DNA of 64,000 nt from Nanobdellota archaeon (lineage in GTDB: Archaea; Nanobdellota; Nanobdellia; Woesearchaeales; GCA-2686295). Position 1 is the first letter of the stretch, and the number at the start of each line of letters is the position of its first letter. Shown here in pieces: positions 3,070 through 59,913 of the stretch. The translations under genes and the position numbers were made by a program. The notes beneath the pieces were generated by a model, which made no database searches, was not told the origin of the DNA, and was given only the letters and a program-made list of their open reading frames with translations. The DNA lies in the NCBI GenBank assembly GCA_018819065.1, contig JAHJQL010000017.1, positions 35,952-99,951 of the forward strand, written 5' to 3'.

Positions 3070-5299
3070 TGACATAGAGCAGTTCAAAGAGAAATACAAG
3101 AGCAAACTAAAATCGCAACTAAGGGGAGAAGACCCAGTACCAATAAGCAGCAACGACTATGAAGACTTTAAAAAAGATTATCTTCCAAAACACATGAACT
3201 TTTATGAAAAAGGATGTAACTTAGCTGAGAAAATATTTCACATAAAACCTGACAAAAAAAAAATTCCAGAGTATAAAGAAGCAATAGATATCTGCCACTT
3301 AAACATAACCCCAACAGGTGCAGCGAGTTTTCCAATACTAATGTTTTTAATATTTCTCCTCATAGGACTTTTCTTTGGATTCCTAATACCATTCTTAGTA
3401 GGCGGAAAGCCTAGCATGTTTGTAATAATAATGGCCGTACTTGTCGGATTTGGACTAATAGTTCCGCTTGGAAATCTGCCTTTCTTCTTTGCTAACAACT
3501 GGCGTATGAAAGCAAGCAACCAGATGGTTCTGTGCATATTCTACATAGTTACATACATGAGGCACAGCTCAAACTTTGAATTAGCGGTTGACTTTGCAGC
3601 TGAACACTTAGCCCCACCATTATCAATAGACCTAAAAAAAATTGTCTGGAACATAGAGACTGGCAAATATTCAACAATAAAAGAATCCATGGATGAATAC
3701 CTAGAGACTTGGAAGAAGTGGAACATGGAATTTATCGAGAGCATGCACTTGATAGAATCATCACTTTATGAAAGCTCTGAGAGTCGAAGGCTTGATGCAC
3801 TTGACAAGTCACTAACAGTCATGCTTGATGAGACTTACGAAAGGATGCTTCACTACGCACAAAACCTAAAGTCGCCAATAACAACTCTTCACATGATGGG
3901 AATAATCCTCCCAATACTAGGACTAGTAATACTGCCGTTAGTCGTCAGCTTCATGCCAGAAGTGAAATGGTTTCACTTATTCACGCTTTACAACATCTTA
4001 CTTCCGGGAGCTGTGTTTTACATGGCAAAGCAAGTGCTTTCAACAAGGCCAACAGGTTATGGAGAAACTGACATATCAGAGATTAACAAAGACTTAAAAA
4101 AATACAGGGACGTCATAATAAACATTGGTGGAGGTCTTGAATTAAGAATAAAACCAATCATTATATCAATAATAATTATAGTTGGTTTTCTAATAATAGG
4201 ATTCTCACCACTCATAATGCATGCGATGCTGCCAGAATTTGACTGCAGCATAGGCGACACTTCAAATGGAGTCACCACTTTTAAATGTGAAAACAAGCTC
4301 AACCACGCAGACAGTACCTATCAACCAAAATATTATCTTCTTGGATACAGACCTGAAATGATAGAAGGAGGAGCAACAGGCAAAATCATAGGTCCTTACG
4401 GTCTTGGAGCAATAATTCTTAGCATGTTTATACCAATAGGTCTTGGGGTTGGAATAGGTTTTTATAATAAGTTAAGATCTCAAAACGTCATAAAAATAAG
4501 GGATGAGACAAAGAAATTAGAGCAAGAATTTGCATCTGCACTATTCCAGTTAGGAAACAGGCTAGGAGATGGTTTTCCTGCAGAGATTGCATTTAGCAAA
4601 GTGGCTGATGTAATGGAAGGAACAGTATCTGGAGATTTTTTTGAGAAGGTAAGCCAAAACATAATTAGGAGAGGATACGGCGTTGAACAAGCAATATTTG
4701 ACCCTGATAATGGAGCATTAAAAGATTTTCCATCACCACTTATAGAAAGTTCGATGAAGGTATTAATTGAAAGCAGCAAGAAAGGTCCGCTAGTCGCAAG
4801 CAACGCACTAATTAACATATCAACATATGTCAAAGAGATGCATAGAGTAGATGAGAGACTAAAGGATTTAATGTCAGATATTATAAGCAGCATGAAATCA
4901 CAAATAGCATTTTTAACACCAGCAATATCAGGCATAGTCATAGGAATAACAAGCATGATAACAACAATCCTCGGAAGCCTTGGAGAAAAACTCTCAGAAC
5001 TAGCAGCTCAAGCAGAAGGAGCATCTACTGGTGGAATACTAAGCATGTTTGGAACAGGAGTGCCAACATTCTACTTTCAATTCATAGTAAGTTTATACGT
5101 AATACAAATAGCATTCATCCTAACAATCATGATTAACGGCATAGAAAACGGTGCTGACAAACTAAACGAACGATTCCTGCTTGGAAAAAACATGACTAGA
5201 ACAGCAATTATATATACGTCAGTAGCATTCGTTGTAGTCATGCTCTTTAATATAATAGCAGCAACCATACTAGGATCAGTAACGAGTAATTTGACTTAA
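3059..5299 (+). CDS. FlaJ/TadC-like polytopic membrane protein of type IV pilus/archaellum assembly
   Basis: 746-aa protein with multiple hydrophobic helices clustered in two blocks separated by cytoplasmic regions. It overlaps the upstream secretion ATPase by 11 nt, the classic FlaI-FlaJ / TadA-TadC arrangement. Confidence 0.7.
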   Translation: MTSDDIEQFKEKYKSKLKSQLRGEDPVPISSNDYEDFKKDYLPKHMNFYEKGCNLAEKIFHIKPDKKKIPEYKEAIDICHLNITPTGAASFPILMFLIFLLIGLFFGFLIPFLVGGKPSMFVIIMAVLVGFGLIVPLGNLPFFFANNWRMKASNQMVLCIFYIVTYMRHSSNFELAVDFAAEHLAPPLSIDLKKIVWNIETGKYSTIKESMDEYLETWKKWNMEFIESMHLIESSLYESSESRRLDALDKSLTVMLDETYERMLHYAQNLKSPITTLHMMGIILPILGLVILPLVVSFMPEVKWFHLFTLYNILLPGAVFYMAKQVLSTRPTGYGETDISEINKDLKKYRDVIINIGGGLELRIKPIIISIIIIVGFLIIGFSPLIMHAMLPEFDCSIGDTSNGVTTFKCENKLNHADSTYQPKYYLLGYRPEMIEGGATGKIIGPYGLGAIILSMFIPIGLGVGIGFYNKLRSQNVIKIRDETKKLEQEFASALFQLGNRLGDGFPAEIAFSKVADVMEGTVSGDFFEKVSQNIIRRGYGVEQAIFDPDNGALKDFPSPLIESSMKVLIESSKKGPLVASNALINISTYVKEMHRVDERLKDLMSDIISSMKSQIAFLTPAISGIVIGITSMITTILGSLGEKLSELAAQAEGASTGGILSMFGTGVPTFYFQFIVSLYVIQIAFILTIMINGIENGADKLNERFLLGKNMTRTAIIYTSVAFVVVMLFNIIAATILGSVTSNLT

Positions 5300-5333
5300 A
5301 AGAGGTAGTTTGAACAATATTTAAAAAAACGAT

Positions 5334-6011
5334 TTGTTTTCTATTGGTAAAATGCGCTGTAATGTTAATTGTTCAAAGCCTTTGCTCTATATGGCCGCAG
5401 TCTATTCCAACGCTGCAGGCACTCTTCTTAGGACTGATGAAAAAGAGCTAGATACAGATAATTTAGAATCAACACTTGAAAGCTATGGTCTTCCAAGAAA
5501 AAATATTGATGAGGCTGTCAAGGGTGGTGAAAGCATCAACTACGTAAACAACATAATTGACAGGCTTAAGGAGAATGGAGACTTAAACAAGTTAAACAAT
5601 TATTTCTCAAAGATAGGTTATAGAAGAATTGGTGATCCTGATGTTTACGACGCAACCAGCACAAAGCAAGGAGTTGTCGCTTACACTGATGGAAATAATC
5701 TGCTCGGGGTGAATTATCAGCTTGAAAAAAGATTAGAGGAATTAGTTGCTGATAGTTACATGTCTGAAGAGATAGCTGAGCATTACCTAATTGCTCATGA
5801 GTATGTGCACCGTGCGCAGCCTGATAGTGTTAAGAGTAACGTCTTAGTTGCTGAGACTGATGCTGAGATGAGGGTTGCTGAGTACTTCTTGGAAAGAGCA
5901 CAAGAGGAAAAAGACCCTGTGAAAGCTAACGAATATCAAAGAGGGGCTGAATTTGCGATGAACCGTTTTTACTCAATTCTTGAACAAGCAATAAGAAGAG
6001 AGGACGAATAA
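5334..6011 (+). CDS. hypothetical protein with HEYVH (HExxH zincin-like) motif
   Basis: 225-aa ORF carrying ...IAHEYVHRAQPD... The start codon is uncertain, with several in-frame Met near the N-terminus. No recognisable family. Confidence 0.45.
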   Translation: MFSIGKMRCNVNCSKPLLYMAAVYSNAAGTLLRTDEKELDTDNLESTLESYGLPRKNIDEAVKGGESINYVNNIIDRLKENGDLNKLNNYFSKIGYRRIGDPDVYDATSTKQGVVAYTDGNNLLGVNYQLEKRLEELVADSYMSEEIAEHYLIAHEYVHRAQPDSVKSNVLVAETDAEMRVAEYFLERAQEEKDPVKANEYQRGAEFAMNRFYSILEQAIRREDE

Positions 6012-6062
6012 AACAAATATTATACGTAATAAAATAAGTGCTTTTTGGTTGTGGGTAGGATT

Positions 6063-6323
6063 CTAGTATACCTTGTCGTGGTGGTTGTAGTCTAGAAGTG
6101 TCACAGTTTTTCTTTCTTCATCAATTTCATACGTTAGAACGAATGATTTGTCTATGTGCACTCTTCTTGCACCGTGCATGTCTCCGCGTAATGGTTTAAA
6201 ATGTAGAGGGTTCCCAAGGATTTGCTCGATTTTTTTCAGAATAATCTCCATCTGCTTTGGGCTCTTCTTTGATAGTTTGGAGAATATCTTATCCAGCTCT
6301 GGCTTTGTTTCAAGAGAGTACAT
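6063..6323 (-). CDS. RelE/ParE-family toxin (type II TA)
   Basis: 86 aa ending ...RGDMHGARRVHIDKSFVLTYEIDEERKTVTLLDYNHHDKVY, the typical RelE/StbE fold signature. Its start abuts the stop of the upstream small gene at 6323/6324. Confidence 0.75.
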   Translation of the reverse strand: MYSLETKPELDKIFSKLSKKSPKQMEIILKKIEQILGNPLHFKPLRGDMHGARRVHIDKSFVLTYEIDEERKTVTLLDYNHHDKVY

Positions 6324-6566
6324 TTATTGTAACCCGTATCTTTTCTTGAACGCATCCAATCCGCCTATGTGAATGGATTTTTCTTTTCTGATTTTATTTA
6401 GTTTGTCAAGATATTCTTTTCTAGCCTCTGGCTCTTCCTCGACAACGGATTTCATGAAGAAGTCTATTTGTTTACTCATACTTAGCCCGCTCCCCTTACA
6501 GTATTCAGAGAATTTCTTGTAAGTCTCCTCTTCCACGTTGAATGATTTTATGCTCACAGGTATCAC
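6324..6566 (-). CDS. putative antitoxin (RHH/RelB-like) of RelE cassette 1
   Basis: 80-aa protein directly upstream of and contiguous with the toxin. It is paralogous to the 81-aa gene at 10046..10291; both share a ...Y(L/I)(D/E)KLNKI(R/E)K(E/Q)K... C-terminus. Confidence 0.65.
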   Translation of the reverse strand: MIPVSIKSFNVEEETYKKFSEYCKGSGLSMSKQIDFFMKSVVEEEPEARKEYLDKLNKIRKEKSIHIGGLDAFKKRYGLQ

Positions 6567-6610
6567 CTTGTTTAATGTTATATAAGATTATTCAATATTA
6601 TTTAAATTTT

Positions 6611-6709
6611 GCGTTTTTGAGTCCTGCCCCAAGCCCAAAACTCTTCGCCAATTCATAGCTCGTCCCTCACATACGTTCAGGAGAATATAACACCGATTAT
6701 ATTCAATCG
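6611..6709 (+). repeat. conserved TA-cassette upstream element (copy 1), containing the TATA-like motif ataacaccgattatattcaat
   Basis: Shares gcgttttt..gaactcttcgc and gaRaatataacaNNgatta blocks with 10398..10540, which sits upstream of the second antitoxin. Confidence 0.5.
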
Positions 6710-6810
6710 TCGTGTAAATTTCTTAGTAAGGGGCTGGCTCTTAATATTACTTCAAGTCAATTAGAACTTTTCGCTACATTTAAATAATTCATATAATAAA
6801 TAGAATAATT

Positions 6811-7584
6811 ATGAAACAAAAAATACTGATGATATTTTTAATGTCTATAATGTGTGTTTCAATAGTGTCAGCAACAACATTATATGATTTTAAGAAAGAT
6901 GCTGACGCCTATATTATTTCACAAGTGGGGCAGAAATACTTTAATGATAATTTTGAGTATTTAGGTGATAAACCCTATCCAGAAGATACGCCAGACAGCA
7001 ATATGCGAATTACACAATATAATCATAAAATTGTAATTGGTGATTATGCAGAAGATGTAAAAGTGACTGTATGGTTTAATTTTAAGGATGGAATTTGGGA
7101 GATTGGTAACGGATATAATACCCAATCTGAAGAATTACCTGATTGTATTTCTGATACTACTAAATGTATGCCTTTTGAAATAACAAGGGAAAAAGCCATT
7201 GAAATTGCAAAAGAAAATGGTGCTTTTGAAGTTGCAGAAAGATATACTGTTGATATTCATTATTTTTATGGAGATATTCAATCTTATGTTTGGGATATTA
7301 CAACTTTTGAATCTGCTGTAAATGGAAAAACTGCAATTATTGATTTAAACACTGGAAAATTAATTTCAATTGCATGGTGGACTTCACTTGAAGTTGAAGC
7401 AGAATATAAAGATGCTACACCATTAAATAATCAACAAACTCCGATAACTACTCCTTCAAACACAGATCAAAAGACACAAGATAATTCATCAAATACTTAT
7501 CTATATTTGATTGTTGGTGCAGTTGTTTTGATTGTAATATTTTTTGTAATTCTATTTATTAAAAGAAACAAGAATAAAGTTTAA
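6811..7584 (+). CDS. secreted, C-terminally membrane-anchored protein with PepSY-like domains
   Basis: N-terminal signal peptide (MKQKILMIFLMSIMCVSIVSA) and a C-terminal TM helix followed by KRNKNKV. Internal ...EITREKAIEIAKENGAFEV...IIDLNTGKLISI resembles PepSY repeats. Confidence 0.55.
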   Translation: MKQKILMIFLMSIMCVSIVSATTLYDFKKDADAYIISQVGQKYFNDNFEYLGDKPYPEDTPDSNMRITQYNHKIVIGDYAEDVKVTVWFNFKDGIWEIGNGYNTQSEELPDCISDTTKCMPFEITREKAIEIAKENGAFEVAERYTVDIHYFYGDIQSYVWDITTFESAVNGKTAIIDLNTGKLISIAWWTSLEVEAEYKDATPLNNQQTPITTPSNTDQKTQDNSSNTYLYLIVGAVVLIVIFFVILFIKRNKNKV

Positions 7585-7660
7585 CGAGCCAGCCCAAATA
7601 AAATATAGACACGACGACTTTGATTTTTTGCCTTCGGCATCGTTGCACTAAAATTTCGTC

Positions 7661-7924
7661 CTAAACGTTATCTTCGAAATGTTGGTTGTTAAAACAGTCA
7701 TCACACATACTATTATGCCAATCTTTGTTATGAGCTGAGATTTGTTTATTGCATTTTTTGCAGTTATAATTCATATCTTCATCATGTTTTTTATGGAATG
7801 TTTTCATTTTCTCTTGAATATCTTTGGGTCCTAAAGTTTCGATGAAAGCTCCGTCTTCCCAAAGTTCATCTTCATCATCTTTCAAGTTCTCTTCTTCATC
7901 CATTTTAGTACCTATTTTTATCAA
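7661..7924 (-). CDS. small Cys-rich zinc-ribbon protein
   Basis: 87 aa with CKKCNKQ...H...CDDC (C4/CHCC-type). It overlaps the 3' end of the WYL gene by 20 nt on the same strand, so they are likely co-transcribed. Confidence 0.45.
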   Translation of the reverse strand: MIKIGTKMDEEENLKDDEDELWEDGAFIETLGPKDIQEKMKTFHKKHDEDMNYNCKKCNKQISAHNKDWHNSMCDDCFNNQHFEDNV

Positions 7925-8411
7925 AGTTGTCTGGAATTGTATAATCTTTATTGGTCAATTTTACAGTAACAATCCTACTTGTTCTGAATTTTCTGATAGC
8001 TTTTCTCAAATGGCAGTAGCCAATGACATATTTTCTTGTTTTATGGTAAACATCAATTTCTCTTTTTCTTGTTTCAGCAGATGCCATATCAAAATAGCCA
8101 ATTTCAATTGTTTTTTGATTATTAAAAGCGTTTTCAATCTTTCTGTAAGCTAACTCATTAATTTCATTATTGAATGTGTCATATCTTCTCCTCAAGATAG
8201 TTTTCTTTGTTTTCTCGTTTTCCTTTTTTGGGAGTGATTTTTCTATCTTTTTTATGATTACCTTTAAACCTGTTCTATCGGCAATTTTTTCATCATAATG
8301 GTCTAATTCCCAATCTTCTGAAGGATTTACAATTAATCCTTCATCAAACACTTTTAAAATCTGATGTATTTGTACTGCTTCTTTTGTTGATAAGTTTATG
8401 GAAATATTCAT
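7905..8411 (-). CDS. WYL-domain protein (putative ligand-sensing transcriptional regulator)
   Basis: The C-terminal segment IEIGYFDMASAETRKREIDVYH..RKYVIGYCHLRKAIRKFRTSRIVTVKLT matches the WYL-domain pattern (Y..R.i.P...wYl.gyc..r...R.FRl.RI). Confidence 0.6.
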   Translation of the reverse strand: MNISINLSTKEAVQIHQILKVFDEGLIVNPSEDWELDHYDEKIADRTGLKVIIKKIEKSLPKKENEKTKKTILRRRYDTFNNEINELAYRKIENAFNNQKTIEIGYFDMASAETRKREIDVYHKTRKYVIGYCHLRKAIRKFRTSRIVTVKLTNKDYTIPDNFDKNRY

Positions 8412-8422
8412 TTTGTGGATGA

Positions 8423-9325
8423 TTATTTACTCTTGTCTTGTAATTTCTTCTTTGTTTCAGGTTCAGCCAAATAGCTCTCTCTTGATGTAACAGGACGACC
8501 TAATTCTTTCTCTGTTTCTTTTCGTGCATTGCCTGCTACTCTTCCGCCCCTTTTGGCAGCACCTTCAACTTCTTCATAACCTTGTGCATCTTCTTTTCTC
8601 GTGATTTCAGTGGATACTCTTTCTCCTAACATTGAAAATATTAACTCTAAGTCATTCATATGATCTCTCAGATTTTCTCTTTTTAATCCTTTGAATTTCT
8701 TATATTCGCTTGGAGTCATGCCAAAAGTGGCTTTTGATATTTCTGCTGTGAGTATTGCATAATTTCTTTCTTCCAAAACGCCTCTTTTTTTCCATTACAT
8801 AAAAATCATAGATTTTTAGGTTGCCAGAAAACAATGTTTTCTGAGCACATCTGTTAATTCATCTCTTATAGCAATACCTCTAACTCTTTTTTCTATCCAG
8901 TCATCAGAATATCCCTTTGCTTTGTATAGTTCTCTCATTCGTTTTTGGGCAAGTTCAGGATTCTCTATTTCCTGCACTCTCTGATAACCTACTTCTGCGA
9001 GCCATTGTTTGAAAGGCTTTGCTTTTTTAGATGGAATAGATTGTATTATCCTAAAAGCGTTTTTTGTATTGACACAATCAGTAAGATAGGATTTACCATC
9101 AGCAGATACTAATTTCAGTTGTCCGATTTTTGCGGACAACTCAAACCCTTCTTCAGTAAGCCTTTTTTTCAGGTCAGACCAGTATTTCCTTGCTCTTCCA
9201 GTTTCTGTCAATACTTCTACAATGTCAACTACTGAAAACCACCATTCATCATTAAACCAAGTCCTTCTAATCTCCTTGCCTTGAAATACCACTAATGCTT
9301 TATCAAATTTAGACATTTTTCCCAT
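8423..9325 (-). pseudogene. DinD/Bro-N-domain DNA-damage-inducible protein D homologue, disrupted by frameshift/in-frame stop
   Basis: The N-terminal ORF (8816..9325) has a Bro-N signature (FDKALVVFQGKEIRRTWFNDEWWFSVVDIVEVLT...KYW). Its frame ends ...ELTDVLRKHCFLAT*. The downstream ORF (8423..8776) begins at a TTG, and in its frame the upstream residues read WKKRGVLEERNYAILTAEISKATFGMTPSEYKKFKGL, the DinD C-terminal region. The break lies next to a T9 run (8783-8793). Confidence 0.6.
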
Positions 9326-9728
9326 TACTAATATCTGCTTAAATAATATATCCTACAATAATCCTAAAATAAATTGTAATATAAAGAATTTTCGGTTAAA
9401 AACGCATAATTATTCGATAAATAATTTCTTGTTACAAACCAGATGTTTGTGATAGTATATTACTAGTTGGGATACAAAAAAAGGTACCCAAAATTAAACT
9501 AATTTTAGTACCAAAAAATATACTTTTTTGTGTACCTTAAAAGGTACCACATTTTAAGACAGGCGAGAAATCACGTATAACTAGGACAAGATATATAAAT
9601 CTAAGCATCCATTTTTATACTATGGGAGCTGAAACGTCCGTTTCGCAAACTACTCCTTAAAAAACAATAATTAGAATCGCAGAAAAACCATTTTATCGAC
9701 GAGAAGAGATATTCGAAAAAGACGTCTT

Positions 9729-9750
9729 ACACCGTTTATATTCAATTCAG
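9729..9750 (+). repeat. copy of the intergenic motif acaccgtttatattcaattcag, flanked by a palindromic aagacgtctt
   Basis: Matches taacacYGaTTATATtCAAt copies at 6687, 11709 and 10515. Confidence 0.4.
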
Positions 9751-9767
9751 AAAAAACGTCTTTATTT

Positions 9768-10049
9768 TTATTGGTTTGGGGCTCTCTCGTAGACTTCATC
9801 GTGATGCCCAAAGTCAACAAACGAAATTGTATCAGATTCTTTTAGAAATTTGAATACAAGCACAAAGTGTCCTAGATGAACTCGTTTTCTGTCTTTCATG
9901 TCATATCTTAAATTCTTGTAATGTTCAACATCTTTGGAAGTTATTACTTCTTCAATTTTCTTCAGAATTCGTTCATACATCACTTTGTCTTTCTTTGAAA
10001 ACTTGTTGAGAATGTCTTGTAAGTAAGGCTTTATCTCATAATGTCTCAT
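9768..10049 (-). CDS. RelE/ParE-family toxin (cassette 2)
   Basis: 93 aa, ...RYDMKDRKRVHLGHFVLVFKFLKESDTISFVDFGHHDEVY. It is paralogous to 6063..6323, and its start overlaps the antitoxin stop by 4 nt. Confidence 0.75.
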   Translation of the reverse strand: MRHYEIKPYLQDILNKFSKKDKVMYERILKKIEEVITSKDVEHYKNLRYDMKDRKRVHLGHFVLVFKFLKESDTISFVDFGHHDEVYERAPNQ

Positions 10050-10291
10050 ACTTTGTCCTCAATAATTTTTCTCAACTCAGCCATATTCTTGAACTTTATG
10101 CCTTTCTGCTTCTCGATTTTATTCAACTTCTCAATGTACTTAGGTCTCAAAGCAGGCTCTAAAATATCCTGTTCATAACGCTGAGCCATCACTTCAATAG
10201 CCTCACTCTTATCCTTAAGACCAAATTGAGCTTTCACAATATTCAACACTCTATTCGTATCATCATCAATCTTTATAATTGCCTGAACCAT
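10046..10291 (-). CDS. putative antitoxin of RelE cassette 2
   Basis: 81 aa, paralogue of 6324..6566. Confidence 0.65.
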   Translation of the reverse strand: MVQAIIKIDDDTNRVLNIVKAQFGLKDKSEAIEVMAQRYEQDILEPALRPKYIEKLNKIEKQKGIKFKNMAELRKIIEDKV

Positions 10292-10397
10292 AATATCACC
10301 TTAACATGATATTAATTCGGTATTAATATATAAATTTTTTGATTCTACAAGCCCAAAACCAAACTATTCTCAAATAAAAAGGTGCTTCGCACTGTAA

Positions 10398-10540
10398 GCG
10401 TTTTTTCTGAACTCTTCGCAAAGCTTCGATTTGCTCGTCGTCTCATCTCTGTTCAACCCAGCTCTTAGCTTGCTTTCGCTCGCAGAAGGAGCTCCATGAG
10501 GAACCGAAAATATAACAGTGATTAAGCGACATATTACTCG
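10398..10540 (+). repeat. conserved TA-cassette upstream element (copy 2), locally GC-richer than surroundings
   Basis: Shares gcgttttttctgaactcttcgc and gaaaatataacagtgatta with 6611..6709. The ORF-track ORF 10370..10594 falls inside it and is probably spurious. Confidence 0.5.
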
Positions 10541-10611
10541 GGGGCACTTTAGATTATATTGAGGCACTCTTAATAGAAAACTATAAGAAAGCAAAGCTTA
10601 TTTTACATTAT

Positions 10612-11574
10612 ATGGAATCAGTTTTCAAACAAAGAATAGGTTTTAATGGAGATTTGAAAGAAATCTCAAAAGACATTTGTAGAGATTTTAATCTTGGAGA
10701 CTTTGTTGATTGTAAAATAATTCTCACAGGTTATGAAGATTTCAATTTCTCTTTAGAAACCAACAACGGCAAATTCTTTGTAAAAATATTCTCAAATGAA
10801 AGAACAATTGATGATTGTAAAAGAAATGTTGATGTAATCGTAAAGTCATTAGAAGTCGGCGTTTTTGCCCCTAAATTATACAAATCAAAACAGGGATATT
10901 TACATCTTCTGTATATTGATCAATCAACATTAAGAATTTGCGTTATGGATTTTATTGATGGTAAAGATTTCTTTACTTCTAAAGCAGCAATCACTCATGA
11001 AGACATGCTTTCATTAGTATGCCAAGCATCTTTAATTAACTCAATAAATATTGAACCAGCAAAAATTTATGATTCATGGGCGATTACTAACTTTCTTCTG
11101 GAATTTGAAAAGAAAAGTCAATACTTAGAAAAAGAAGATTCTGACATTATTAAACCCCTTGTTGAAAAATTTAAGAATATCAAAATCGCATCATTACCTC
11201 ACTGCTTTGCACACGGGGATATAATCAGAACTAATGTTATAAGAGATAAAAATGATAAGATTTGGATTGTGGATTTTTCTGTTTCAAATTATTATCCTCG
11301 CATTCAAGAATTAGCAGTGTTGGCTTGCGATATCTTATTCAATAGAGATAACAAAGAAGAAAGTGAACAAAATCTTAAAGATGCTTTAGAAGAATATCAA
11401 AAAACGATAAAATTGACTACAAGAGAAATTGAAGTTTTACCAACTTACATTAAACTTGCTCATGCCATGCATGTATTATGTGCAACCTATGAGAAGAAAG
11501 CTAAAAAGAATGATTCTAAAGAGAATGAATACTTTCTCAACATTGGAAAGTCTGGATTAAGACAAATAAATTAA
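10612..11574 (+). CDS. phosphotransferase-family protein (APH/choline-kinase/homoserine-kinase-II-like)
   Basis: Catalytic-loop-like HGDIIRTNVI and metal-binding IWIVDFS motifs of the APH/ePK-like kinase fold. Confidence 0.6.
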   Translation: MESVFKQRIGFNGDLKEISKDICRDFNLGDFVDCKIILTGYEDFNFSLETNNGKFFVKIFSNERTIDDCKRNVDVIVKSLEVGVFAPKLYKSKQGYLHLLYIDQSTLRICVMDFIDGKDFFTSKAAITHEDMLSLVCQASLINSINIEPAKIYDSWAITNFLLEFEKKSQYLEKEDSDIIKPLVEKFKNIKIASLPHCFAHGDIIRTNVIRDKNDKIWIVDFSVSNYYPRIQELAVLACDILFNRDNKEESEQNLKDALEEYQKTIKLTTREIEVLPTYIKLAHAMHVLCATYEKKAKKNDSKENEYFLNIGKSGLRQIN

Positions 11575-11708
11575 AATCTCTTTCTAAGAGTGCCCAAAAT
11601 AGTATGATAAATGCGAAATGTATTTGCCGATGAAGTGCCCCCTGCGTCATACGCTGCGGAAAACTAAAGTTTTCCTTGCCCCTCACCCAAAAAAAGGCTC
11701 GGGGGAAA

Positions 11709-11730
11709 CTAACACTGATTATATCCAAAT
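11709..11730 (+). repeat. copy of the intergenic motif taacactgattatatccaaatg, ~50-65 nt upstream of the next gene
   Basis: Third copy of the TATA-like motif. It is preceded by a perfect hairpin ggaaaact-aa-agttttcc (11657-11674). Confidence 0.4.
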
Positions 11731-11776
11731 GTTAAAAATGCTATAGTTTAAATAAAGCAGTCTCTTTCTAAATGAT

Positions 11777-12118
11777 ATGTCCGAACAGGGTTATGAAATA
11801 TATAAAACAAAACCAGATGAAAATCAAAAATTCCCTCATATAGTACTCGATCAAGTGGGAGTAAAGTTTTACGATGGTCCTAATAACTCTGGTGAAACGG
11901 GAGGTTATTGTCATCCGAACTCAGATAGAGAACCCGATCAATTGGCAAAAATTATTGATACAATAGTTTATGATAGATTGTTAAAAAGAACAAATTTAAA
12001 GAATTCTCCCATCAATTCAATAAAGGTATTTCTTGAAGACCCAAGTTGGGACGAGACTGCAACAAAATTATTAGAACTAAACGATAGTCGAGCGTTTTCA
12101 ACATCTCGAAAATCCTAA
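11777..12118 (+). CDS. hypothetical protein
   Basis: 113-aa ORF with no recognisable motifs. The initiator Met is taken from the ORF track. Confidence 0.4.
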   Translation: MSEQGYEIYKTKPDENQKFPHIVLDQVGVKFYDGPNNSGETGGYCHPNSDREPDQLAKIIDTIVYDRLLKRTNLKNSPINSIKVFLEDPSWDETATKLLELNDSRAFSTSRKS

Positions 12119-12189
12119 AAATCTCGTTAATCCTTTTTATGAATTTTCGGTTTTTTCTAGCGAAAAACGAACATAACACTTTTTTTAGA

Positions 12190-12230
12190 AGGAAAAAAAA
12201 GAAAAAAAATCAGCAAGACTTACATCTTGC
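12190..12230 (-). terminator. hairpin (gcaagacttacatcttgc) plus T8/T8 run downstream of the Zn-ribbon gene
   Basis: On the minus strand the stop codon sits inside a 6-bp stem-loop followed by TTTTTTTTCTTTTTTTT, consistent with archaeal oligo-T termination. Confidence 0.45.
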
Positions 12231-12363
12231 CAATTCTAAACATCTTAGTTCCACAAGTTGGGCAGATTCCCTTAACACAGTCTCTACCATTAGCCATTTT
12301 ACTGGCTTTTGCGTCTTTCATAGTCCTTTTTGACTTGCACTTGACACAATATGCTTCCACCAT
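12220..12363 (-). CDS. small CxxC...CxxC zinc-ribbon protein
   Basis: Internal ATG at 12363 gives 47 aa: MVEAYCVKCKSKRTMKDAKASKMANGRDCVKGICPTCGTKMFRIGKM. The longer ORF-track start would read through the tRNA-Phe 3' exon. It lies immediately downstream of the tRNA on the same strand. Confidence 0.6.
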   Translation of the reverse strand: MVEAYCVKCKSKRTMKDAKASKMANGRDCVKGICPTCGTKMFRIGKM

Positions 12364-12408
12364 TCTAGTACACCTCATATTTTTTAATGAATTATTAGGA
12401 AAAAAAGT

Positions 12409-12617
12409 GGGGACACCGGGACTTTCACTTACGGCTTCGAATTGCAACGCAATTCCTTCGCCCGAAGGGAAGGATTTCGTCGTCAAGGTTCTCAAAAAGC
12501 GAAGCTTTTTGGCACCTCAAAAACGATTTCTCGTTTTTGTTGGGGCGAAACCGTTGTTTTGAACCCGGGACCACTAGATCTTCAGTCTAGTGCTCTCCCA
12601 GTCTGAGCTATGTCCCC
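12409..12617 (-). tRNA. tRNA-Phe (GAA) with a 135-nt intron in the T-loop (non-canonical position 59/60)
   Basis: The 5' exon (12617..12558, minus strand) is GGGGACA TA GCTC AGACTGGGA GAGC A CTAGA CTGAAGA TCTAG TGGTC CCGGG TTCAAA. The 3' exon (12422..12409) is T CCCGG TGTCCCC A. All stems pair perfectly, the anticodon is GAA, and the mature length is 74 nt. The intron spans 12557..12423. An oligo-T run follows the 3' end. Confidence 0.85.
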
Positions 12618-22600: not shown

Positions 22601-25084
22601 TCTTTTTTTCCTTGCAACTGCTCTTCGCTCGTTAAAATCCATTCTTATTCGTTTATAACCAATTATCGCAACGAAGATGAATGCTATGAACACTAAGAAC
22701 CAATTAGCATAGAAGCAAAGCTTATCATAAGCCTGAGAAAGTGTAAACTTATCCCTTCTTACAACTTCAAGAGTTATTCTTGGGCTTAGAGTGAACGCGT
22801 CGTGGTTGTCTACTGCCAGAAAAGAGACATTAGTCACGCCGTACCATCCTTGTTTTGGCATGAATACCACTTTATCTATTGTTATATCTACATTTACAAA
22901 TTCGCTTGAGTCTATGAGTGACAAGTTAACTTTGTCTCCTGCATCAGGGTCAGAAACAAAGGATGATTTTTCAACCTTGAAAGCTTTATCCTGAGCCCAG
23001 ATATAATGAGTTGAACTAGCTTTTGAATAATCTATTAATGGATTTAGAACTGGTGGGCCTATGAAGAAGTAAACTATCCAAAGCAAGATTCCTAGTATTA
23101 CTAAAAGCAACACTAAGAACAAGATGAATTTTCTCTTATTAAGCCAACCCTTCTTCTTCACAAACTTAGCAACAATTGCTAATATTATGATTGCAAATAT
23201 TAATAGTACAGTTACGAATCGGCATGGTTTTTGCGAGAAGTAAAGATATAGCTTGACATAAACAGGCTTGTCTTTGAGACTGACAATTATATTGTTTTTA
23301 TATTCAAAATCGTTGTCAGACTTTATTGTTAGGTCAAGAGTATAATCTCCAAATGGAGTTTTATCAGTGTGATTTGATAATAGTAGGATTTCTTTTGTCT
23401 CTCCTGGGTTAAGCGATAAGGTTTTTTCACTTAGTTTTATCCAGAAATCTTTTGGCTGAAGGGATAAAGAGTATTTTCCAGATTCAAGTCCTTCGTTAGT
23501 TATCTTTATTACTGCTGAGTTTTCTGTATCTCTTCTGATAGAATAAGAGGTTTTTGCTATGCTTGCTTTGTAGCAGCTCCATTGAGACAAAACAACTATG
23601 TTCTTAACCTCGTCTGATGCCTTGACACCATTTTTTAGGACTGCTTCTACCAACAATCCATAAGTTGCATCTTTATCAGGTGGATTTAAAGTAAGCACAA
23701 CATCTTTATCTTCGCCAGGCTCTAAAATTATAGAGTCAGTATCTAACTCAGCGATGGCTGGGTAAGCTTTTAAAGATATCTTTTCTTCATATAACCCCTC
23801 ATTTTTTACATTTACAACTAACTCTTTTTCTGAAGCGCAGAATCTTAAATTCTTATCAACAATAGTTATCTTTGGCTTATAACAATCAATTATATCTAAT
23901 ATAACAGTTTTTTCATTTGATATATTTCCATACCAACTTGTGGATTTGAGAGTGAAGGTATAATAACCAACTTTTACCTGTTTCAAAATAAAATTTATAT
24001 TCTCAGATTTGCTCTCATCCGAACCAAGGCTTACTTGATTAGAGGATAGTTTTACAAAAGAAGGTGCACCTATTAACTCTAAATAATACTTGTTTGGAGT
24101 ATCAACATCATTTTCAATATCAAATTCTATTGGTGCGTATTCTTCCTCACAAACTTCATGATAGTCATCAATGTCTAATGAATAATCATAAAGCTTGTTT
24201 ATGACTAGATCATGTTTGATTTCTGTTTTTAAGCGGTTATTCTCGGCCACAACTGAAAAAATGTTAGGTGTTACTCCAAAAACCGCACAAGAAGGTGTAA
24301 AGGTTGATTTGATGATTCCTTCTTCACCAGGATTTAAAAGAATTGTTTGTGAAGATAAAGTCATGTAAGGCTTATTGGTTATTGGTGTTGCTGTGTATTG
24401 TTCAGAAAATAATCCCGAGTTTTTTATCAATAATTCGTACTCTACAGATTTGCAAGGATCAATATCATCTTTGCTTGCTTTAAGTTTTACATCTAAATTT
24501 TGACATTGAGAAACTACTAATTTCTTTGTTAAAGTAGCTTCTCCATCACCAAGCAGCTTAACAGTTATCTTTAGCGTCTTATCTAAGATGTTGCAAGGAG
24601 CATTTATCTGCAGCAAGACTTCTTGAATTGCTCCGCTTTCTAATTCAAAATAAGAAGGGTTTATGCTTACAAAATCAAGGTTGGATGATAAGCTGTAAGC
24701 GACTTTCTTGTTTTCAGTATTTCTTATTTTTATTGAATCGTTAAGTTTTGAGCATGAACAAACCTTTAAATTAGCATCACCTGTGGCTGCTCCAAACTTC
24801 AAAGGAATTATTGGTGGCTTAGTAGTAATTGTCGGAGTGACTATGGTTGTAGGTGGTGTCTGTTTTGGAACATAAATAATGGTCTGTTGAGAAGGCGAAT
24901 CTGGTATGCTGACAAGATAAACTTCAAAAATTGTTTTTTCATACGGTGGCTGCACAGAGGTCACTGTTTGGTTAACCACTTCTGTATTGATTAGATTAAC
25001 TTCAAAAATCTCTGCACTTGCAAAACTAACTATGAATAGAATTGTTAAAAGAACAACTGAAAACTGTAATTGGTTTTTGTTCAT
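22595..25084 (-). CDS. large cell-surface protein (S-layer/adhesin-like) with signal peptide and membrane-spanning segments
   Basis: N-terminal signal peptide (MNKNQLQFSVVLLTILFIVSFASA), long beta-rich Thr/Ser/Asn-rich ectodomain, two internal TM helices and a C-terminal TM helix. Confidence 0.6.
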   Translation of the reverse strand: MNKNQLQFSVVLLTILFIVSFASAEIFEVNLINTEVVNQTVTSVQPPYEKTIFEVYLVSIPDSPSQQTIIYVPKQTPPTTIVTPTITTKPPIIPLKFGAATGDANLKVCSCSKLNDSIKIRNTENKKVAYSLSSNLDFVSINPSYFELESGAIQEVLLQINAPCNILDKTLKITVKLLGDGEATLTKKLVVSQCQNLDVKLKASKDDIDPCKSVEYELLIKNSGLFSEQYTATPITNKPYMTLSSQTILLNPGEEGIIKSTFTPSCAVFGVTPNIFSVVAENNRLKTEIKHDLVINKLYDYSLDIDDYHEVCEEEYAPIEFDIENDVDTPNKYYLELIGAPSFVKLSSNQVSLGSDESKSENINFILKQVKVGYYTFTLKSTSWYGNISNEKTVILDIIDCYKPKITIVDKNLRFCASEKELVVNVKNEGLYEEKISLKAYPAIAELDTDSIILEPGEDKDVVLTLNPPDKDATYGLLVEAVLKNGVKASDEVKNIVVLSQWSCYKASIAKTSYSIRRDTENSAVIKITNEGLESGKYSLSLQPKDFWIKLSEKTLSLNPGETKEILLLSNHTDKTPFGDYTLDLTIKSDNDFEYKNNIIVSLKDKPVYVKLYLYFSQKPCRFVTVLLIFAIIILAIVAKFVKKKGWLNKRKFILFLVLLLVILGILLWIVYFFIGPPVLNPLIDYSKASSTHYIWAQDKAFKVEKSSFVSDPDAGDKVNLSLIDSSEFVNVDITIDKVVFMPKQGWYGVTNVSFLAVDNHDAFTLSPRITLEVVRRDKFTLSQAYDKLCFYANWFLVFIAFIFVAIIGYKRIRMDFNERRAVARKKRS

Positions 25085-25114
25085 CGTACATGTTCTTTTG
25101 AAAAATTAAAAAAA

Positions 25115-26413
25115 TTAGTAATAGGTCTGTGTCTCCGTGTCATCATCCACGCCGCCGTTGTTCTTTCTAAGCTTGTTAAAGCCTATGATTAAGCCGACGA
25201 TTATTAGGATTATTACAAGGACAATCAGTGCTATTTCTAATCCTTTTTTCAAATCACTAGAAGATGACTTTTTTTCATCATCAGTGATTTTCACTGTTAG
25301 TGGAACTACTTTTGAGTCTTTGTCTGTTGAGACCGTCACCAAAAACATTCTTTCACCGCTAACATCTTCATTTGGAGTTATTAAAACTTCAACAGTCTTT
25401 GTCTCTCCGCCTTTTAACACTATTTGTGATCCTGGTGAAAGCATGCTTGTTCCCCAAGAGCTAACTCCTGAAACTGTCAGTGTGTATATCTTTGTTGTTG
25501 TTCCAAAGTTTGTTATGCCCATTGGGAATGAAACTTGTGAACCTTCTTTCACCTCTAGTTTTTCTGGAGCAACAATAGTTGTTTTTGATTCAGACACAGA
25601 TGATGGTGTTGTTGCTGTGCATGTGTCTCCTGGAACAACTGTTAGGTCTGTTGTTTTTGATGTTGATTCATATTCATCAAATTCAACTGTTATCTCTACT
25701 TTGTAAACTCCTGGAGCTGCGCAGTCTGGAATTCTAAGCAAGAATTCTTCTAATGTTTCTTTCTCATCTGCTTCTAACTCGTCAAGGTACTGGTAATCCA
25801 TTATGTTTAGTGCTGGAACTGCAACTTGAACTTTTACATCGTCTAAGTCTGTGTCACCAATGTTTTCAACTTTAACTGTTGCAGTAAATGCTCTTCCAGC
25901 ATTTATTACTGATGATGGACTAAATGAAAAATCTTTTATTATAACTGCATCTTCAGGATCAGTTCCTTCGACGTGTAGTTGATACATCTTTTCGAATGAT
26001 AAGCCATCTTCGTCACCAACTCTCACTCTTAGAATTGTATATTTCTTTTCCATTTTTGTTGGCACTTGAAGTGATAATGTAATTGTGTCTATGTCTCCTT
26101 GTGACATGTCAAATGTTCTTGAAGTTGCTGAGACAAGATTTTCTTCTTTATTAGCATATCTGTAACCATAAATGTCTGCTTCAACTTGAACATTTGAAAG
26201 GTTGTCGAGTGCTTGGACTCTGACTTTCAAATCAAGGTCTTGACCCCTTCTTACTTTCAAGTTGTCTGTGTGTGTTCCAACTTGAGAGCTGTTCATGCTG
26301 TCCATTTCTTCGCCGTTAATCTTTAAGTATAAAACATCTAGATTTATTGCAGCAGCGAAATTCGCAGTTAGTAAAACCGCAATCATTAAAATAAACACTT
26401 TTCCTAAATTCAT
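25115..26413 (-). CDS. cell-surface protein with CARDB/S-layer-like beta domains and C-terminal TM anchor
   Basis: ATG at 26413 gives an MNLGKVFILMIAVLLTANFAAA signal peptide. It has CARDB-like segments (VKVENIGDTDLDDVKVQVAVP), a Thr/Ser-rich stalk, a C-terminal TM IALIVLVIILIIVGLIIGF, and a basic tail. Confidence 0.6.
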   Translation of the reverse strand: MNLGKVFILMIAVLLTANFAAAINLDVLYLKINGEEMDSMNSSQVGTHTDNLKVRRGQDLDLKVRVQALDNLSNVQVEADIYGYRYANKEENLVSATSRTFDMSQGDIDTITLSLQVPTKMEKKYTILRVRVGDEDGLSFEKMYQLHVEGTDPEDAVIIKDFSFSPSSVINAGRAFTATVKVENIGDTDLDDVKVQVAVPALNIMDYQYLDELEADEKETLEEFLLRIPDCAAPGVYKVEITVEFDEYESTSKTTDLTVVPGDTCTATTPSSVSESKTTIVAPEKLEVKEGSQVSFPMGITNFGTTTKIYTLTVSGVSSWGTSMLSPGSQIVLKGGETKTVEVLITPNEDVSGERMFLVTVSTDKDSKVVPLTVKITDDEKKSSSSDLKKGLEIALIVLVIILIIVGLIIGFNKLRKNNGGVDDDTETQTYY

Positions 26414-26567
26414 TTTTACGTACCCCCTAATTTGGTTTCTTTTTTTCTTAATGTAAAAGAAAGTTCCTCGTCGAAACCCCCTATACAAACACGAAATTAA
26501 ACAAATATATAAAGCTTTCGTTTATTTCTTCATTCATCAGTGAAAACTTTTTGTTTTTATTTTCTAG

Positions 26568-29500
26568 TTAAATTATTCTTACAGGTATCTGCTTCTCCCT
26601 TCTCAAATCATCATTGCCAGTGTAAACACTAAAATAGTAATCTCCTGACTTAATGTTATTAGGTATATAAACGTATGATTTCACGCGCGTTCTCTTTTTA
26701 GCGTGAATATCAACAACACTTAATTGCTCCTTAAGTCCATACTCAGGAATCATAACACCAACTGCGATATCACTGACTTTTTTGTCAAAAGTGTTTTCTA
26801 AAGTGATTGCAACTAATGCATATTCTCCTTTTCTAACTGTGTTATAGTCATACCCATATATTGTGACATCAACTATCTTTACAGCATCACTATCCTCAAG
26901 GCCACTAACAATGGAAAACTCTCTTATATCAGTTGGGCTTTCACAACCAGGATCATCCGGGTAATCAGTTAAACCATCACCATCATTATCAACTCCATCA
27001 GAGCACTGATAATTCACAAATTCAATTACTCTTATCCTAAACAAAGCCGAAGCAGAGAATGTTCCATCAAATACAGACACGTAAAACCAGTGCTGTCCAA
27101 ACTGATCCTGGGTTGGTGTGAAACGTATAACTCCAGAAGTTGAGTTTATATTAAATAAACCAGTATCATCGCTGAAAGTTAAAGGGTCATTATTACTATC
27201 TGAAGCTTGGACTTGGTAAACGAACTCTCTTCCTATATAAGCCACTAAGTCCGCACCTAAAATTGTAGGTGGCATTGAAATTAAGTAAACAGTTAAAGTG
27301 AATGGATCACTAACAGATACTACACCATCAGAGCAACTAATAGTTATAGTGTGAGCACCACCATCTGAAACTGTTGGTGTAAAACTTATCAGTCCGGATG
27401 TTGGATTAATATTAAATAAGTTAGTGTTGTCTGAGTAAGTTATTGGGTCGCCATCAACATCACTGCAAACTACTTGGTAAGTGAAAGTTGAGTTTTCTGT
27501 AGCGTTCATGTCAGGGATTAGCTGCATAATTGGTGCGTCATTAACTGGATTAACAGTTATAGCAAACGTATTGTCTGCAGTTCCGCCATTACCATCACTA
27601 ACCCTAACAGAGCAACTAGCAACACCATTCCAATTCAAAACAGAATGTAACTTAAGAGTGTTACCAACAACCTCACAGTTAACCTGAGCAGTGTTCTCAT
27701 TAACAACAGAGAAACTCAAAACATCACCATCAGCATCAAAAACCAAAGCACTCAAATCAACAACATGAGTAAAAACACCAAAATCCTCATCCAAAGTCAC
27801 ACTTGGGATGCTGCTAGTCCAGACAGGATTATCATTCTGAGAAACAACAGAGAAAACAGCAGAGTCACTATCAGACAAACTACCAGGATCAGATGCAGTA
27901 AAAGTTATAGTCTCAAAACCAAACCAATTAGCATTTGGAACACTAATAGTAGCAACACGAGAAGGACTAATTGAAACAATCAAATCAGTATTACCAACAT
28001 AAGTCCAAGTCATTTCAGAATCAAGATTATCAACATCAGAAACATAATTATCAAGATTTATAGTTGTAAAGGTTTGACCCTCATTAACAGTCTGATCAGG
28101 AATATCAGAAACAACAGGTGCGTCGTTTACTGGATTAACAGTTATAGCAAACGTATTGTCTGCAGTTCCGCCATTACCATCACTAACCCTAACAGAGCAA
28201 CTAGCAACGCCATTCCAATTCAAAACAGAATAAAGCTTAAGAACGCTTCCAACAACCTCACAGTTAACCTGAGCAGTGTTCTCATTAACAACAGAGAAAC
28301 TCAAAACATCACCATCAGCATCAAAAACCAAAGCACTCAAATCAACAACGTGAGTAAAAACCGGGAAATCCTCATCCAAAGTCACACTTGGGATGTTACT
28401 CGTCCAAACAGGATTATCATTCTGAGAAACAACAGAGAAAACAGCAGAGTCACTATCAAACAAACCAGCAGGCGTAACATCAGTTGCAGTGAATGTTATT
28501 GTTTCTGCACCATTCCAATTATTGCTTGGGGGAGTAATGGTTACAACGTTTTGAGAGTTAACATTAACTGTCAAATCAGTGTTTCCTGAGTAAGTCCAAA
28601 CAATAGCATCACCATCAACTTCAATTAAGTAAGTATCTAAATCAAATGATGAGAATGATTGACCCTCATTAATAGTTTGATTAGGAATGTCCAAAACAAC
28701 AGGTGCATCATCAACAGGGTTGATTGTTATAGAAACTAATGCGTTGTTGCTGCTTGAGAATTGGTCTGAACATTTGTAAGTGAAACTATCAGCTCCAAAG
28801 TAATTAAGAGCAGAAGTATATATAACAGTATTGCCAACAACAGAACCTAATGATCCATGAGACGGACTTGACACAATTGAGTAAGTCAGATTATCCCCGT
28901 CAACATCAGAACAATTAAAAGTCACTTGTTTAGAAACATCTTCATTAGTTACAGCAAGTAAAGGATAAGCAACAGGTGCATCATCAACAGGATTAACTGT
29001 TATACTAACGGTGGCGACGTTACTGTAATTAAGTCCGTCAAACGCTTTGAAAGTAAATGAATCTGCTCCGTTGTAATTCTGGTTTGGAGTGTAAGTAACG
29101 TTGTTTCCCAAAAGAGTCAAAAGCACTCCATGAGTTGGCTGTGTTACTATACTATATGTTAATAGGTCATTATCTGCATCTGTTGCAACTAAAGTTATTA
29201 GTTTAGAATTGTCTTCATTTAATGAAACTGCTTGATTATAAGCAACTGGTGCGTGGTTTACTACGACTGCAGGTGTAACAACTATTGTTTTTAATGTTAG
29301 TTCCATGTCATTATCATCATCAATTACTCTAAGAGTTGTCGCGTAAGTTCCACTCTGGTTGAAAGTATATGTGGTATTTTGCGAATAGCTATCAATTGTT
29401 CCGTCACTTAAGAAGTCCCACTGGTACCTAAAAGGAGGATTTCCTTTTGTCACATTACCCCTAAACGAAACTGTCAGTGGTGCTGGTCCTGAAGCTGGAT

Positions 29501-50456: not shown

Positions 50457-50488
50457 ATTATTAGAATAAATTTCAAGTTCATAAAATA

Positions 50489-51487: not shown

Positions 51488-51510
51488 AAATAAATTTCAG
51501 ATGTGCTAAA

Positions 51511-54970: not shown

Positions 54971-54972
54971 AA

Positions 54973-58268: not shown

Positions 58269-58272
58269 AAAC

Positions 58273-59904: not shown

Positions 59905-59913
59905 AAAAATAGA

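Follow-up and report, generated by a model that had tools for sequence, protein, structure and literature searches.

The 64,000-nucleotide stretch of DNA analysed here, called the window throughout, belongs to a Nanobdellota archaeon and is 100% identical to contigs of Nanoarchaeota (DPANN) metagenome-assembled genomes (GCA_018819945.1 and GCA_018828865.1), to a 141-kb ENA contig, and to several Logan assemblies. Between the gene of a pilus membrane protein, pilM, and the gene for tRNA-Phe it carries an accessory island of 6.9 kb (5300..12219, assigned to neither strand), which runs from the pilM stop codon at 5299 to a small DUF5679 gene and holds toxin–antitoxin (TA) pairs, a WYL-domain gene, a Bro-N/DinD-like gene, an APH-family kinase gene, and orphan open reading frames (ORFs). 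This block is a lineage-specific island at a conserved hotspot beside tRNA-Phe, where the cargo differs from lineage to lineage, and it is probably a mosaic whose modules were acquired separately and not as one mobile element. All coordinates are window positions, and L-numbers (L007, L021, L110, and so on) denote the related loci or contigs that were compared.

A conserved gap with changing cargo

About 80 related loci were gathered through a search with glycyl-tRNA synthetase (GlyRS) in genomes and through pilM alignment in metagenomes, and about 30 of these, the most distant with a pilM identity of 53%, have their genes arranged as ATPase, pilM, gap, tRNA-Phe, OB-fold protein, GlyRS. In most of these syntenic loci the gap after pilM measures 148–350 nt and holds the tRNA alone (148 nt in L008/L023, 162 nt in L071, 170 nt in L072, and 179 nt in L041, for example); some gaps measure 0.6–4.1 kb, and the 6.9 kb of the window are the biggest insertion among the loci compared. 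The island is missing from L007, L008/L023, L041, L025, and about 25 more syntenic loci, both flanks being syntenic, and the presence/absence comparison thus found the block in none of the related genomes examined. The cargo of filled gaps is a thioredoxin/CcdA/ArsR set in L024, an ABC transporter in L067, and VapBC-like pairs in L082 and L074, and neither an integrase nor a homologue of any island protein was found in the filled gaps of the approximately 30 syntenic loci. Because the block is absent in relatives, its flanks are syntenic, and the cargo at the site varies, it is a lineage-specific island at a hotspot. The first-pass annotation, made from the letters of the window, had taken the place by the tRNA for an integration hotspot, and this is borne out in the form of a recurrent hotspot with differing cargo across lineages. 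The same annotation had named two features that would together speak against an island, a host-like composition and a conserved synteny of the block; the former is seen, but the latter is not.

As for the composition, the GC content of the island is 33.0% vs 32.8%, and its tetranucleotide distance is 0.140 vs a mean of 0.176 for windows of the same size, so that the check for an atypical composition came out negative. The strain represented by L022, which is 99.92% identical, has the left part of the island up to the end of its contig (window 7855), with the same density of single-nucleotide polymorphisms in island and flank. The host-like composition, together with this shared left part, therefore fits an old acquisition or one of like from like. 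A host-like composition would also suit an ancestral region that was repeatedly lost in relatives, i.e., genome reduction and not gain, and DPANN genomes are known for reductive evolution; but about 30 relatives (53–72% pilM identity) have no island gene here, their insertions carry unrelated genes, and three modules have close homologues at other places of other genomes, and we regard repeated loss as quite improbable. The strongest compositional outliers of the window lie elsewhere, at about 50000-60000 and 24500-33000, in regions that hold a glycosyltransferase/radical-SAM/methyltransferase cluster (~25% GC) and the surroundings of a 1781-aa ORF.

In three more distant relatives, LAGLIDADG-type ORFs were observed in the gap between pilM, tRNA-Phe, and GlyRS (L081 5669-6382, L026 12831-13553, and L032 3774-4484), and ARAGORN found no tRNA in the gaps of these loci; these ORFs may be intron-encoded homing endonucleases.

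Independently relocating modules and their junctions

According to the favoured reading, the space that separates tRNA-Phe from the convergent end of the pilus operon would be a conserved, recombination-permissive gap filled by separate acquisitions, giving a mosaic of at least six self-contained modules, each with its own canonical promoter; the order and the mechanism of these acquisitions we infer. Homologues of the modules are scattered singly in other genomes and never occur together. The orf257, APH, and Bro-N modules in particular were found singly in unrelated contexts, and at least these three are thus independently relocating units with promoters of their own. For orf257 and APH, the DNA similarity to these copies breaks off abruptly, about 100 nt before the gene and 20–70 nt after it, and two solo insertions bounded by direct repeats of ~40 nt were found in other loci, one of Bro-N in L021 and one of orf257 in L110.

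The orf257 module (6695..7655, + strand) comprises the gene at 6811-7584, whose product has a signal peptide, a weak PepSY match, and a C-terminal transmembrane segment, plus 115 nt upstream and 70 nt downstream that travel along with it. It shows 82% nucleotide identity to L110 5886-6834, in another genome and another context, and a homologue is also present in L111. In L110, a 37-nt direct repeat (92% identity, at 5836-5872 and 7554-7590) stands around a 1.7-kb segment, in which an orf257 homologue and a small membrane ORF are seen. The 3′ element of the module, at 7616-7654, is conserved in L110 6795-6861 and in L019 10514-10590 (− strand), where it occurs without the orf257 gene; its layout is a T-run, a hairpin with a UUCG loop, and then GTTGCACTAAAATT, and the hairpin stem varies by genome yet stays paired (TGCC/GGCA, TTCGGC/GCCGAA, and TTCC/GGAA).

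The APH kinase module (10510..11592, + strand) is made up of the gene at 10612-11574 (APH 3.3e-10), which the first-pass annotation had recognised and which hidden Markov model (HMM) searches confirm, of about 100 nt upstream, and of a short 3′ hairpin. Its nucleotide identity to L102–L106 is 80–88%, the left homology limit recurs at 10510/10511, and conservation of the aligned upstream part holds in 4 of 5 genomes. The upstream region (10510-10611), as kept in L103, L105, L106, and L102, displays two tandem GCACT-type boxes and the invariant TTAATAGAAAACTATAAGAAAGCAAAGCTTAT, and it probably acts as a regulated promoter carried along by the gene. APH homologues are common in DPANN and Patescibacteria at 86–55% identity, and elsewhere they stand downstream of rpsG, next to a class II aminoacyl-tRNA synthetase gene (Asp/Lys/Asn type), or in other places. 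The product would be a small-molecule kinase of a sort common in DPANN and in the candidate phyla radiation (CPR), relocating with its own regulated promoter; together with the orphan genes, it would be cargo of the island.

The DinD-like Bro-N gene (8423..9325, − strand), a member of the PADLOC candidate family PDC-S13, is present in two pieces, 8423-8776 and 8816-9325. The gene had been called frameshifted in the first-pass annotation; its identity stands, but the frameshift does not, and the interruption is instead an in-frame insert of 51 nt (8797..8847, − strand) with two stop codons and two small hairpins, as given by protein and DNA alignments with intact homologues. The two halves lie in the same frame and match positions 4–162 and 166–278 of the PDC-S13 profile, and removal of the insert restores the ...ELTD-E-WKKRGV... 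of intact 280-aa homologues. The insert, which is exact within an otherwise 96%-conserved gene, is the same in all six assemblies, which come from different samples, and the window has no second copy of it. A bulge-helix-bulge intron was considered by eye and rejected, the 4-nt stretches at both junctions being unpairable and the minimum-free-energy fold not being bulge-helix-bulge-like; the insert is read as a putative inactivating insertion. Bro-N homologues number thousands at 80–96% identity, in Nanoarchaeota, Woesearchaeota, Pacearchaeota, and some bacteria, in unrelated contexts; the DNA similarity of about 80% is limited to the ORF and therefore points to strong purifying selection and not only to recent transfer. 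In L021, a Bro-N gene occurs alone within an insertion of 1.1 kb that separates two housekeeping genes, a GHMP kinase gene and pyrG, and contains no recombinase; at the ends of this insertion stands a perfect direct repeat of 41 nt (66 nt at 85%), at 7761-7826 and 8867-8932. One copy is the genuine pyrG 3′ end, while the other has been displaced and still encodes a C-terminus of pyrG, with slight divergence. Upstream of the window's Bro-N gene, by 150–230 nt, two near-perfect palindromes with GGTACC cores (GGTACCCAAAATTAAACTAATTTTAGTACC and TGTGTACCTTAAAAGGTACCACA) were noticed at 9470-9550, and they may be operator sites.

A short repeat, of which the first-pass annotation had counted four copies, separates the modules. 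Three copies are robust, having at most 2 mismatches in 18 nt and lying all on the + strand and all between modules: the reference copy at 6681..6707 (+ strand, GAGAATATAACACCGATTATATTCAAT), the second at 9722..9746 (+ strand, 19/25 matches, core 17/18), and the third at 11703..11729 (+ strand, 20/25 matches). The fourth, at 10506..10524 (+ strand), is weaker and forms part of the conserved upstream region of APH. The rest of the window and ~1.2 Mb of related loci hold no further robust copy, and the putative outer copies at 6006 and 12169 are no more than chance expectation. The homology between orf257 and L110 starts inside the reference repeat, at GATTATATTCAAT, i.e., exactly at the right half, while the left half, GGAKAATATAACAS, ends the 3′ element common to L110 and L019, the homology breaking right after ATATAACA(C/G). 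A viral origin of the repeat was rejected, as ten IMG/VR matches to its 18-mer have no flanking similarity and are therefore due to chance. A role as core promoter was likewise rejected: every island gene has its own TTTAAATA-type box 25–45 nt ahead of its start, as housekeeping genes do, and the repeat stands 50–120 nt upstream and is not TATA-like. A scan for promoter and terminator consensus gave background level.

Inverted blocks are a second feature of the junctions. TCGTCGTGT/GGGCTGGCTC and GAGCCAGCCC/ACACGACGA lie on both sides of the orf257 gene, and two-block inverted repeats bracket orf257, APH, and the second TA module; among 2000 random flank pairs, none attained the information-weighted score of orf257, none that of APH, and 6 that of the second TA module. 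Exact inverted blocks were not found around homologous modules in other genomes. Pairing of the 5′ and 3′ blocks at the RNA level was judged unlikely because a canonical promoter lies downstream of the 5′ blocks, though the two substitutions in L110 would keep G–U pairs. The repeat copies and inverted blocks suggest cassette junctions and termini, on a thin case.

As the main rival of the mosaic reading, it is possible, if doubtful, that the island grew by tandem accretion of recombinase-less gene cassettes through site-specific or short-homology recombination, the 18–25-nt repeat being an att-like core junction regenerated at each insertion and the inverted blocks being cassette termini. The exclusive position of the three robust repeats between modules, the break points of homology at their two halves, the left limit of APH at 10510 inside the weak copy, the inverted blocks at orf257, APH, and the second TA module, which are far above chance, and the ~40-nt direct repeats of the solo orf257 and Bro-N insertions, which encode no recombinase, would all be expected of such cassettes. 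However, robust copies number only three, those at the ends lie within chance, and the direct repeats of L021 and L110 are target-specific and unrelated to the repeat of the window, so there is no common att site; moreover, APH copies elsewhere have neither flanking direct repeats nor the repeat at their right ends, exact inverted blocks are missing around the homologous modules elsewhere, and no recombinase or transposase was called in the parts of the window checked (about 0.6–21.6 kb and 31–64 kb). A wider form of this explanation, which we hold to be rather doubtful, is that DPANN archaea carry tiny recombinase-less one-gene mobile cassettes with their own promoter and conserved ends, the island being a tandem array of them. 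Such cassettes would insert with direct repeats of ~40 nt, with restoration of a host gene's 3′ end in some cases, L021 being an example, and the array, with its 18–25-nt junction repeats and cassette-specific inverted blocks, would be an integron-like capture platform lacking attC and an adjacent integrase.

Mobile insertion cassettes (MICs) and elements resembling miniature inverted-repeat transposable elements (MITEs) consist of passenger genes between terminal inverted repeats. The window resembles them in that orf257, APH, and the second TA module stand between two-block inverted repeats of ~30–60 nt with no transposase inside; it differs in that no target-site duplication was found outside the inverted blocks at 6707/7617 or 10540/11642, that no cognate transposase was called in the checked parts of the window, and that conservation of the blocks does not extend to the APH homologues in other genomes.

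Integrated elements, integrons, and the tRNA-Phe gene

The block cannot be recognised as an integrated element, a defence island, or an integron. No integrase was found among the island ORFs by HMM searches or in the gene calls at 612-21574 and about 31–64 kb, in agreement with the first-pass annotation, to which none was visible, and capsid, replication, and conjugation genes are likewise missing among the island ORFs. The 18-nt pattern of the tRNA 3′ exon has a single match in the window at ≤3 mismatches, so that the search for a direct repeat of the tRNA-Phe 3′ end at the far boundary of the island yielded no copy, and short-word blastn of both flanks revealed no duplicated ends of pilM, DUF5679, or the OB-fold gene inside the island. 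As for defence, PADLOC reported only the WYL domain and the candidate PDC-S13, the latter interrupted by two stop codons. Content typical of integrated mobile or defence islands had been proposed at first; the accessory nature of the block stands, as seen from its TA pairs and defence-associated genes, but an integrated element is not supported, and the defence island is weak.

It is improbable that a single provirus, plasmid, or integrative island entered at tRNA-Phe and decayed, losing its integrase and att sites. Such an entry would account for the adjoining tRNA gene and for an att-like signature at the site in L007, where the tRNA-Phe gene is intact and a second copy of its 3′ end follows ~90 nt on; Bro-N/DinD-like genes are common on phage contigs, and elements of this kind typically carry TA pairs and WYL proteins. 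Against this stand the missing element genes and end copies described above, the host-like GC and tetranucleotides, the fact that the homologues of the modules never occur together elsewhere, and the lack of close relatives of the WYL protein, orf113, and orf225 in viral contigs; in addition, the DUF5679 gene lies between the island and the tRNA. That gene (12220..12363, − strand) encodes a 47-aa zinc-ribbon protein (DUF5679 1.4e-11), is missing here in L008 and L007, and has a 71%-identical copy beside the pilus gene in L044, which makes its membership in the island uncertain. The island had been described as adjoining the tRNA gene; the site is indeed near tRNA-Phe, the true 3′ end of which is at 12408, with the DUF5679 gene of uncertain membership lying between. 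Compared with tRNA-linked genomic islands in general, the block shares the lineage-specific occurrence at a conserved position beside a tRNA, the variation of cargo by lineage, and the TA and defence-associated cargo; it differs in having no integrase, no repeat of the tRNA 3′ end, a host-like composition, a conserved small gene between tRNA and island, and modules that are individually found elsewhere.

The gene for tRNA-Phe(GAA) (12408..12617, − strand) has a 136-nt intron at 12422-12557, after T-loop position 59. A tRNA-Phe call at 12542-12617 was an artefact that used intron bases as a false 3′ end (only 36 bits with Rfam), the true 3′ end being at 12408; ARAGORN and Rfam alike misplace the unspliced gene. 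In the fold, the acceptor stem and the T stem form across the intron (z = −5.3), and both junctions have a bulge-helix-bulge-like motif, in which the T stem is followed by a 3-nt bulge AG|U, a 4-bp helix UUCA/UGAA, a 5-nt loop AA|ACA, and a 9-bp helix; the spliced product of 74 nt is a canonical tRNA-Phe by ARAGORN. Rfam found the tRNA only. In L008 (11817-11934), tRNA-Phe has a D-loop insertion of ~41 nt instead of a T-loop intron, and in L007 (11838-12015) the spacer between the two copies of the 3′ end resembles the hairpin of the window intron, CCAAAAAnnnnnnTTTTTGAG; this resemblance suggests that the intron may have arisen from a duplicated 3′ exon. L005 and L006, which are independent Logan assemblies of different samples, both end at 12511, within the intron, and this shared end may be strain-level variation.

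Archaeal integrons are documented, mostly as cassette arrays without integrase (CALINs), which are rich in TA cassettes and include examples in Nanoarchaeota metagenome-assembled genomes (Ghaly et al. 2022, PMC9668308), and membership in this class was therefore examined. As in chromosomal integrons and CALINs, short units, most of them with one gene, follow each other in the island, and between its modules lie three robust same-strand copies of an 18–25-nt repeat, but this site is not attC-like. The TA units are in reverse orientation, as in bacterial chromosomal integrons, where interspersed reverse-oriented TA units are thought to stabilise the array. Unlike in integrons, each gene has its own promoter, and the complementary blocks flank genes and are not inside one intergenic site. 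At 5200-12450, zero RYYYAAC...GTTRRRY pairs were found at 40–160 nt spacing on either strand, none of the intergenic regions, taken as single-stranded DNA, surpasses its shuffled versions in folding (z from −1.3 to +0.9), and no integron integrase (IntI) with attI exists in or beside the island. With neither R″/R′ boxes nor hairpins, a canonical attC array was rejected, and an integron-like origin without integrase is scarcely credible.

Proposed stabilisation and regulation, and meaning of the island

The two RelE/antitoxin cassettes of the first-pass annotation were confirmed by HMM. TA module 1 (6063..6566, − strand) has a RelE/YafQ-type toxin at 6063-6323 and an abutting upstream antitoxin at 6324-6566; the toxin matches ParE_toxin (1.1e-7), TIGR00053 YafQ (2e-21), and RelE_StbE (3e-12), the antitoxin gives a weak Arc/RelB-like match in the HMM search, and the palindrome TAATCTTATATAACATTA is located downstream of the TATA box and ahead of the start codon. 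TA module 2 (9768..10291, − strand) has a ParE/RelE toxin at 9768-10049 and a DUF2683-like antitoxin at 10046-10291, with a 4-nt overlap. The toxin scores are above the thresholds (ParE_toxin 32.7 and 26.3 bits, cut-off 23; RelE_StbE 46.7 bits, cut-off 27.9), the two toxins are 42% identical, and the antitoxins, each encoded by a small gene directly upstream in the same operon, are similar in their C-terminal parts only. The C-terminus of the second toxin is 6 residues (ERAPNQ) longer than that of the first, and the codons concerned (9768-9788, − strand) form a GC-rich block that pairs as an inverted repeat with 10348-10360, as if the frame entered the flanking element. In the size of the toxins (86–93 aa), their matches to RelE/YafQ/ParE HMMs, the abutting or overlapping upstream antitoxin gene, and the palindrome at a promoter, the modules resemble type II RelE/ParE TA modules; they differ in their archaeal host and in their divergent antitoxins (weakly Arc/RelB-like and DUF2683-like). 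As addiction modules, the pairs would penalise deletion of the region, because loss of the labile antitoxin would free an mRNA-cleaving toxin, and the cargo would thereby persist; by analogy with the behaviour of these families and with the TA cassettes of chromosomal integrons, they would thus stabilise the island.

The WYL domain proposed at first was confirmed in a short form: the gene at 7905..8411 (− strand) encodes 168 aa (WYL 6.8e-11; PADLOC WYL 7.8e-16), no helix-turn-helix (HTH) being recognisable in the protein, and belongs to a small family of 160–180 aa with 39 representative clusters at E<1e-10. Like WYL defence regulators of the BrxR/CapW/PafBC type, it is encoded beside a candidate defence gene; it differs from them in length (168 aa vs roughly 300 aa) and in having no N-terminal winged HTH of the long forms, and the gene neighbouring it is inactivated. 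Going by what is known of the family, it could be a ligand-sensing regulator of its neighbours, probably of the DinD-like gene, now dead. The Cys-rich mini-protein (7661..7924, − strand; 80–87 aa, CxxC...H...CxxC), whose gene overlaps the end of the WYL gene, is present as an ORF in public annotations, as the first reading had it, and gave no family match, zf-UBR being sub-threshold only.

The several orphans noted at first are three ORFs without a convincing family match, at 5334-6011, 6811-7584, and 11777-12118. The first, orf225 (5334..6011, + strand; start at 5352 or 5391 according to gene callers), has a HEYVH (HExxH-like) motif but matches nothing in Pfam, NCBIfam, PHROG, or PADLOC and no sequence or fold in PDB, and neither the related loci nor viral contigs contain a relative; orf113 (11777..12118, + strand; 113 aa) has no family, PDB, or fold match. 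For both, Foldseek found nothing in PDB below E = 0.2 and the PDB sequence searches were empty, the folds being taken from single-sequence AlphaFold models that are poor (pLDDT, the predicted local distance difference test, 57 and 67).

Several points weigh against the mosaic reading. No close relative with an empty site was found, and the nearest comparators reach only ~70% protein identity; no date can therefore be put on the gain, and loss in relatives is the less parsimonious alternative. Separate acquisition is shown for three modules only (orf257, APH, and Bro-N). Stabilisation by the TA pairs and regulation by the WYL protein draw on family knowledge. The same-strand repeats and the inverted blocks, which that reading leaves unaccounted for, suggest a mode of insertion more specific than generic recombination. 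We nevertheless favour the mosaic of separately acquired modules as the probable origin of the block.

DPANN archaea have tiny, reduced genomes and depend on hosts, and how they gain and retain accessory genes is poorly understood. The locus offers a clean comparative picture of a fixed gap between a pilus operon and tRNA-Phe that takes up differing cargo by lineage, and this cargo seems to arrive as single-gene modules with their own promoters, some of which elsewhere are insertions flanked by direct repeats and without a recombinase of their own. Single-gene insertions of DPANN genomes that stand between direct repeats, and junction repeats in the same genomes, are the lead to follow. Should the inverted blocks and the junction repeat prove to be recombination sites, they would point to an archaeal gene-capture mechanism distinct from integrons; otherwise, the locus would be an ordinary, well-documented hotspot stabilised by TA pairs.

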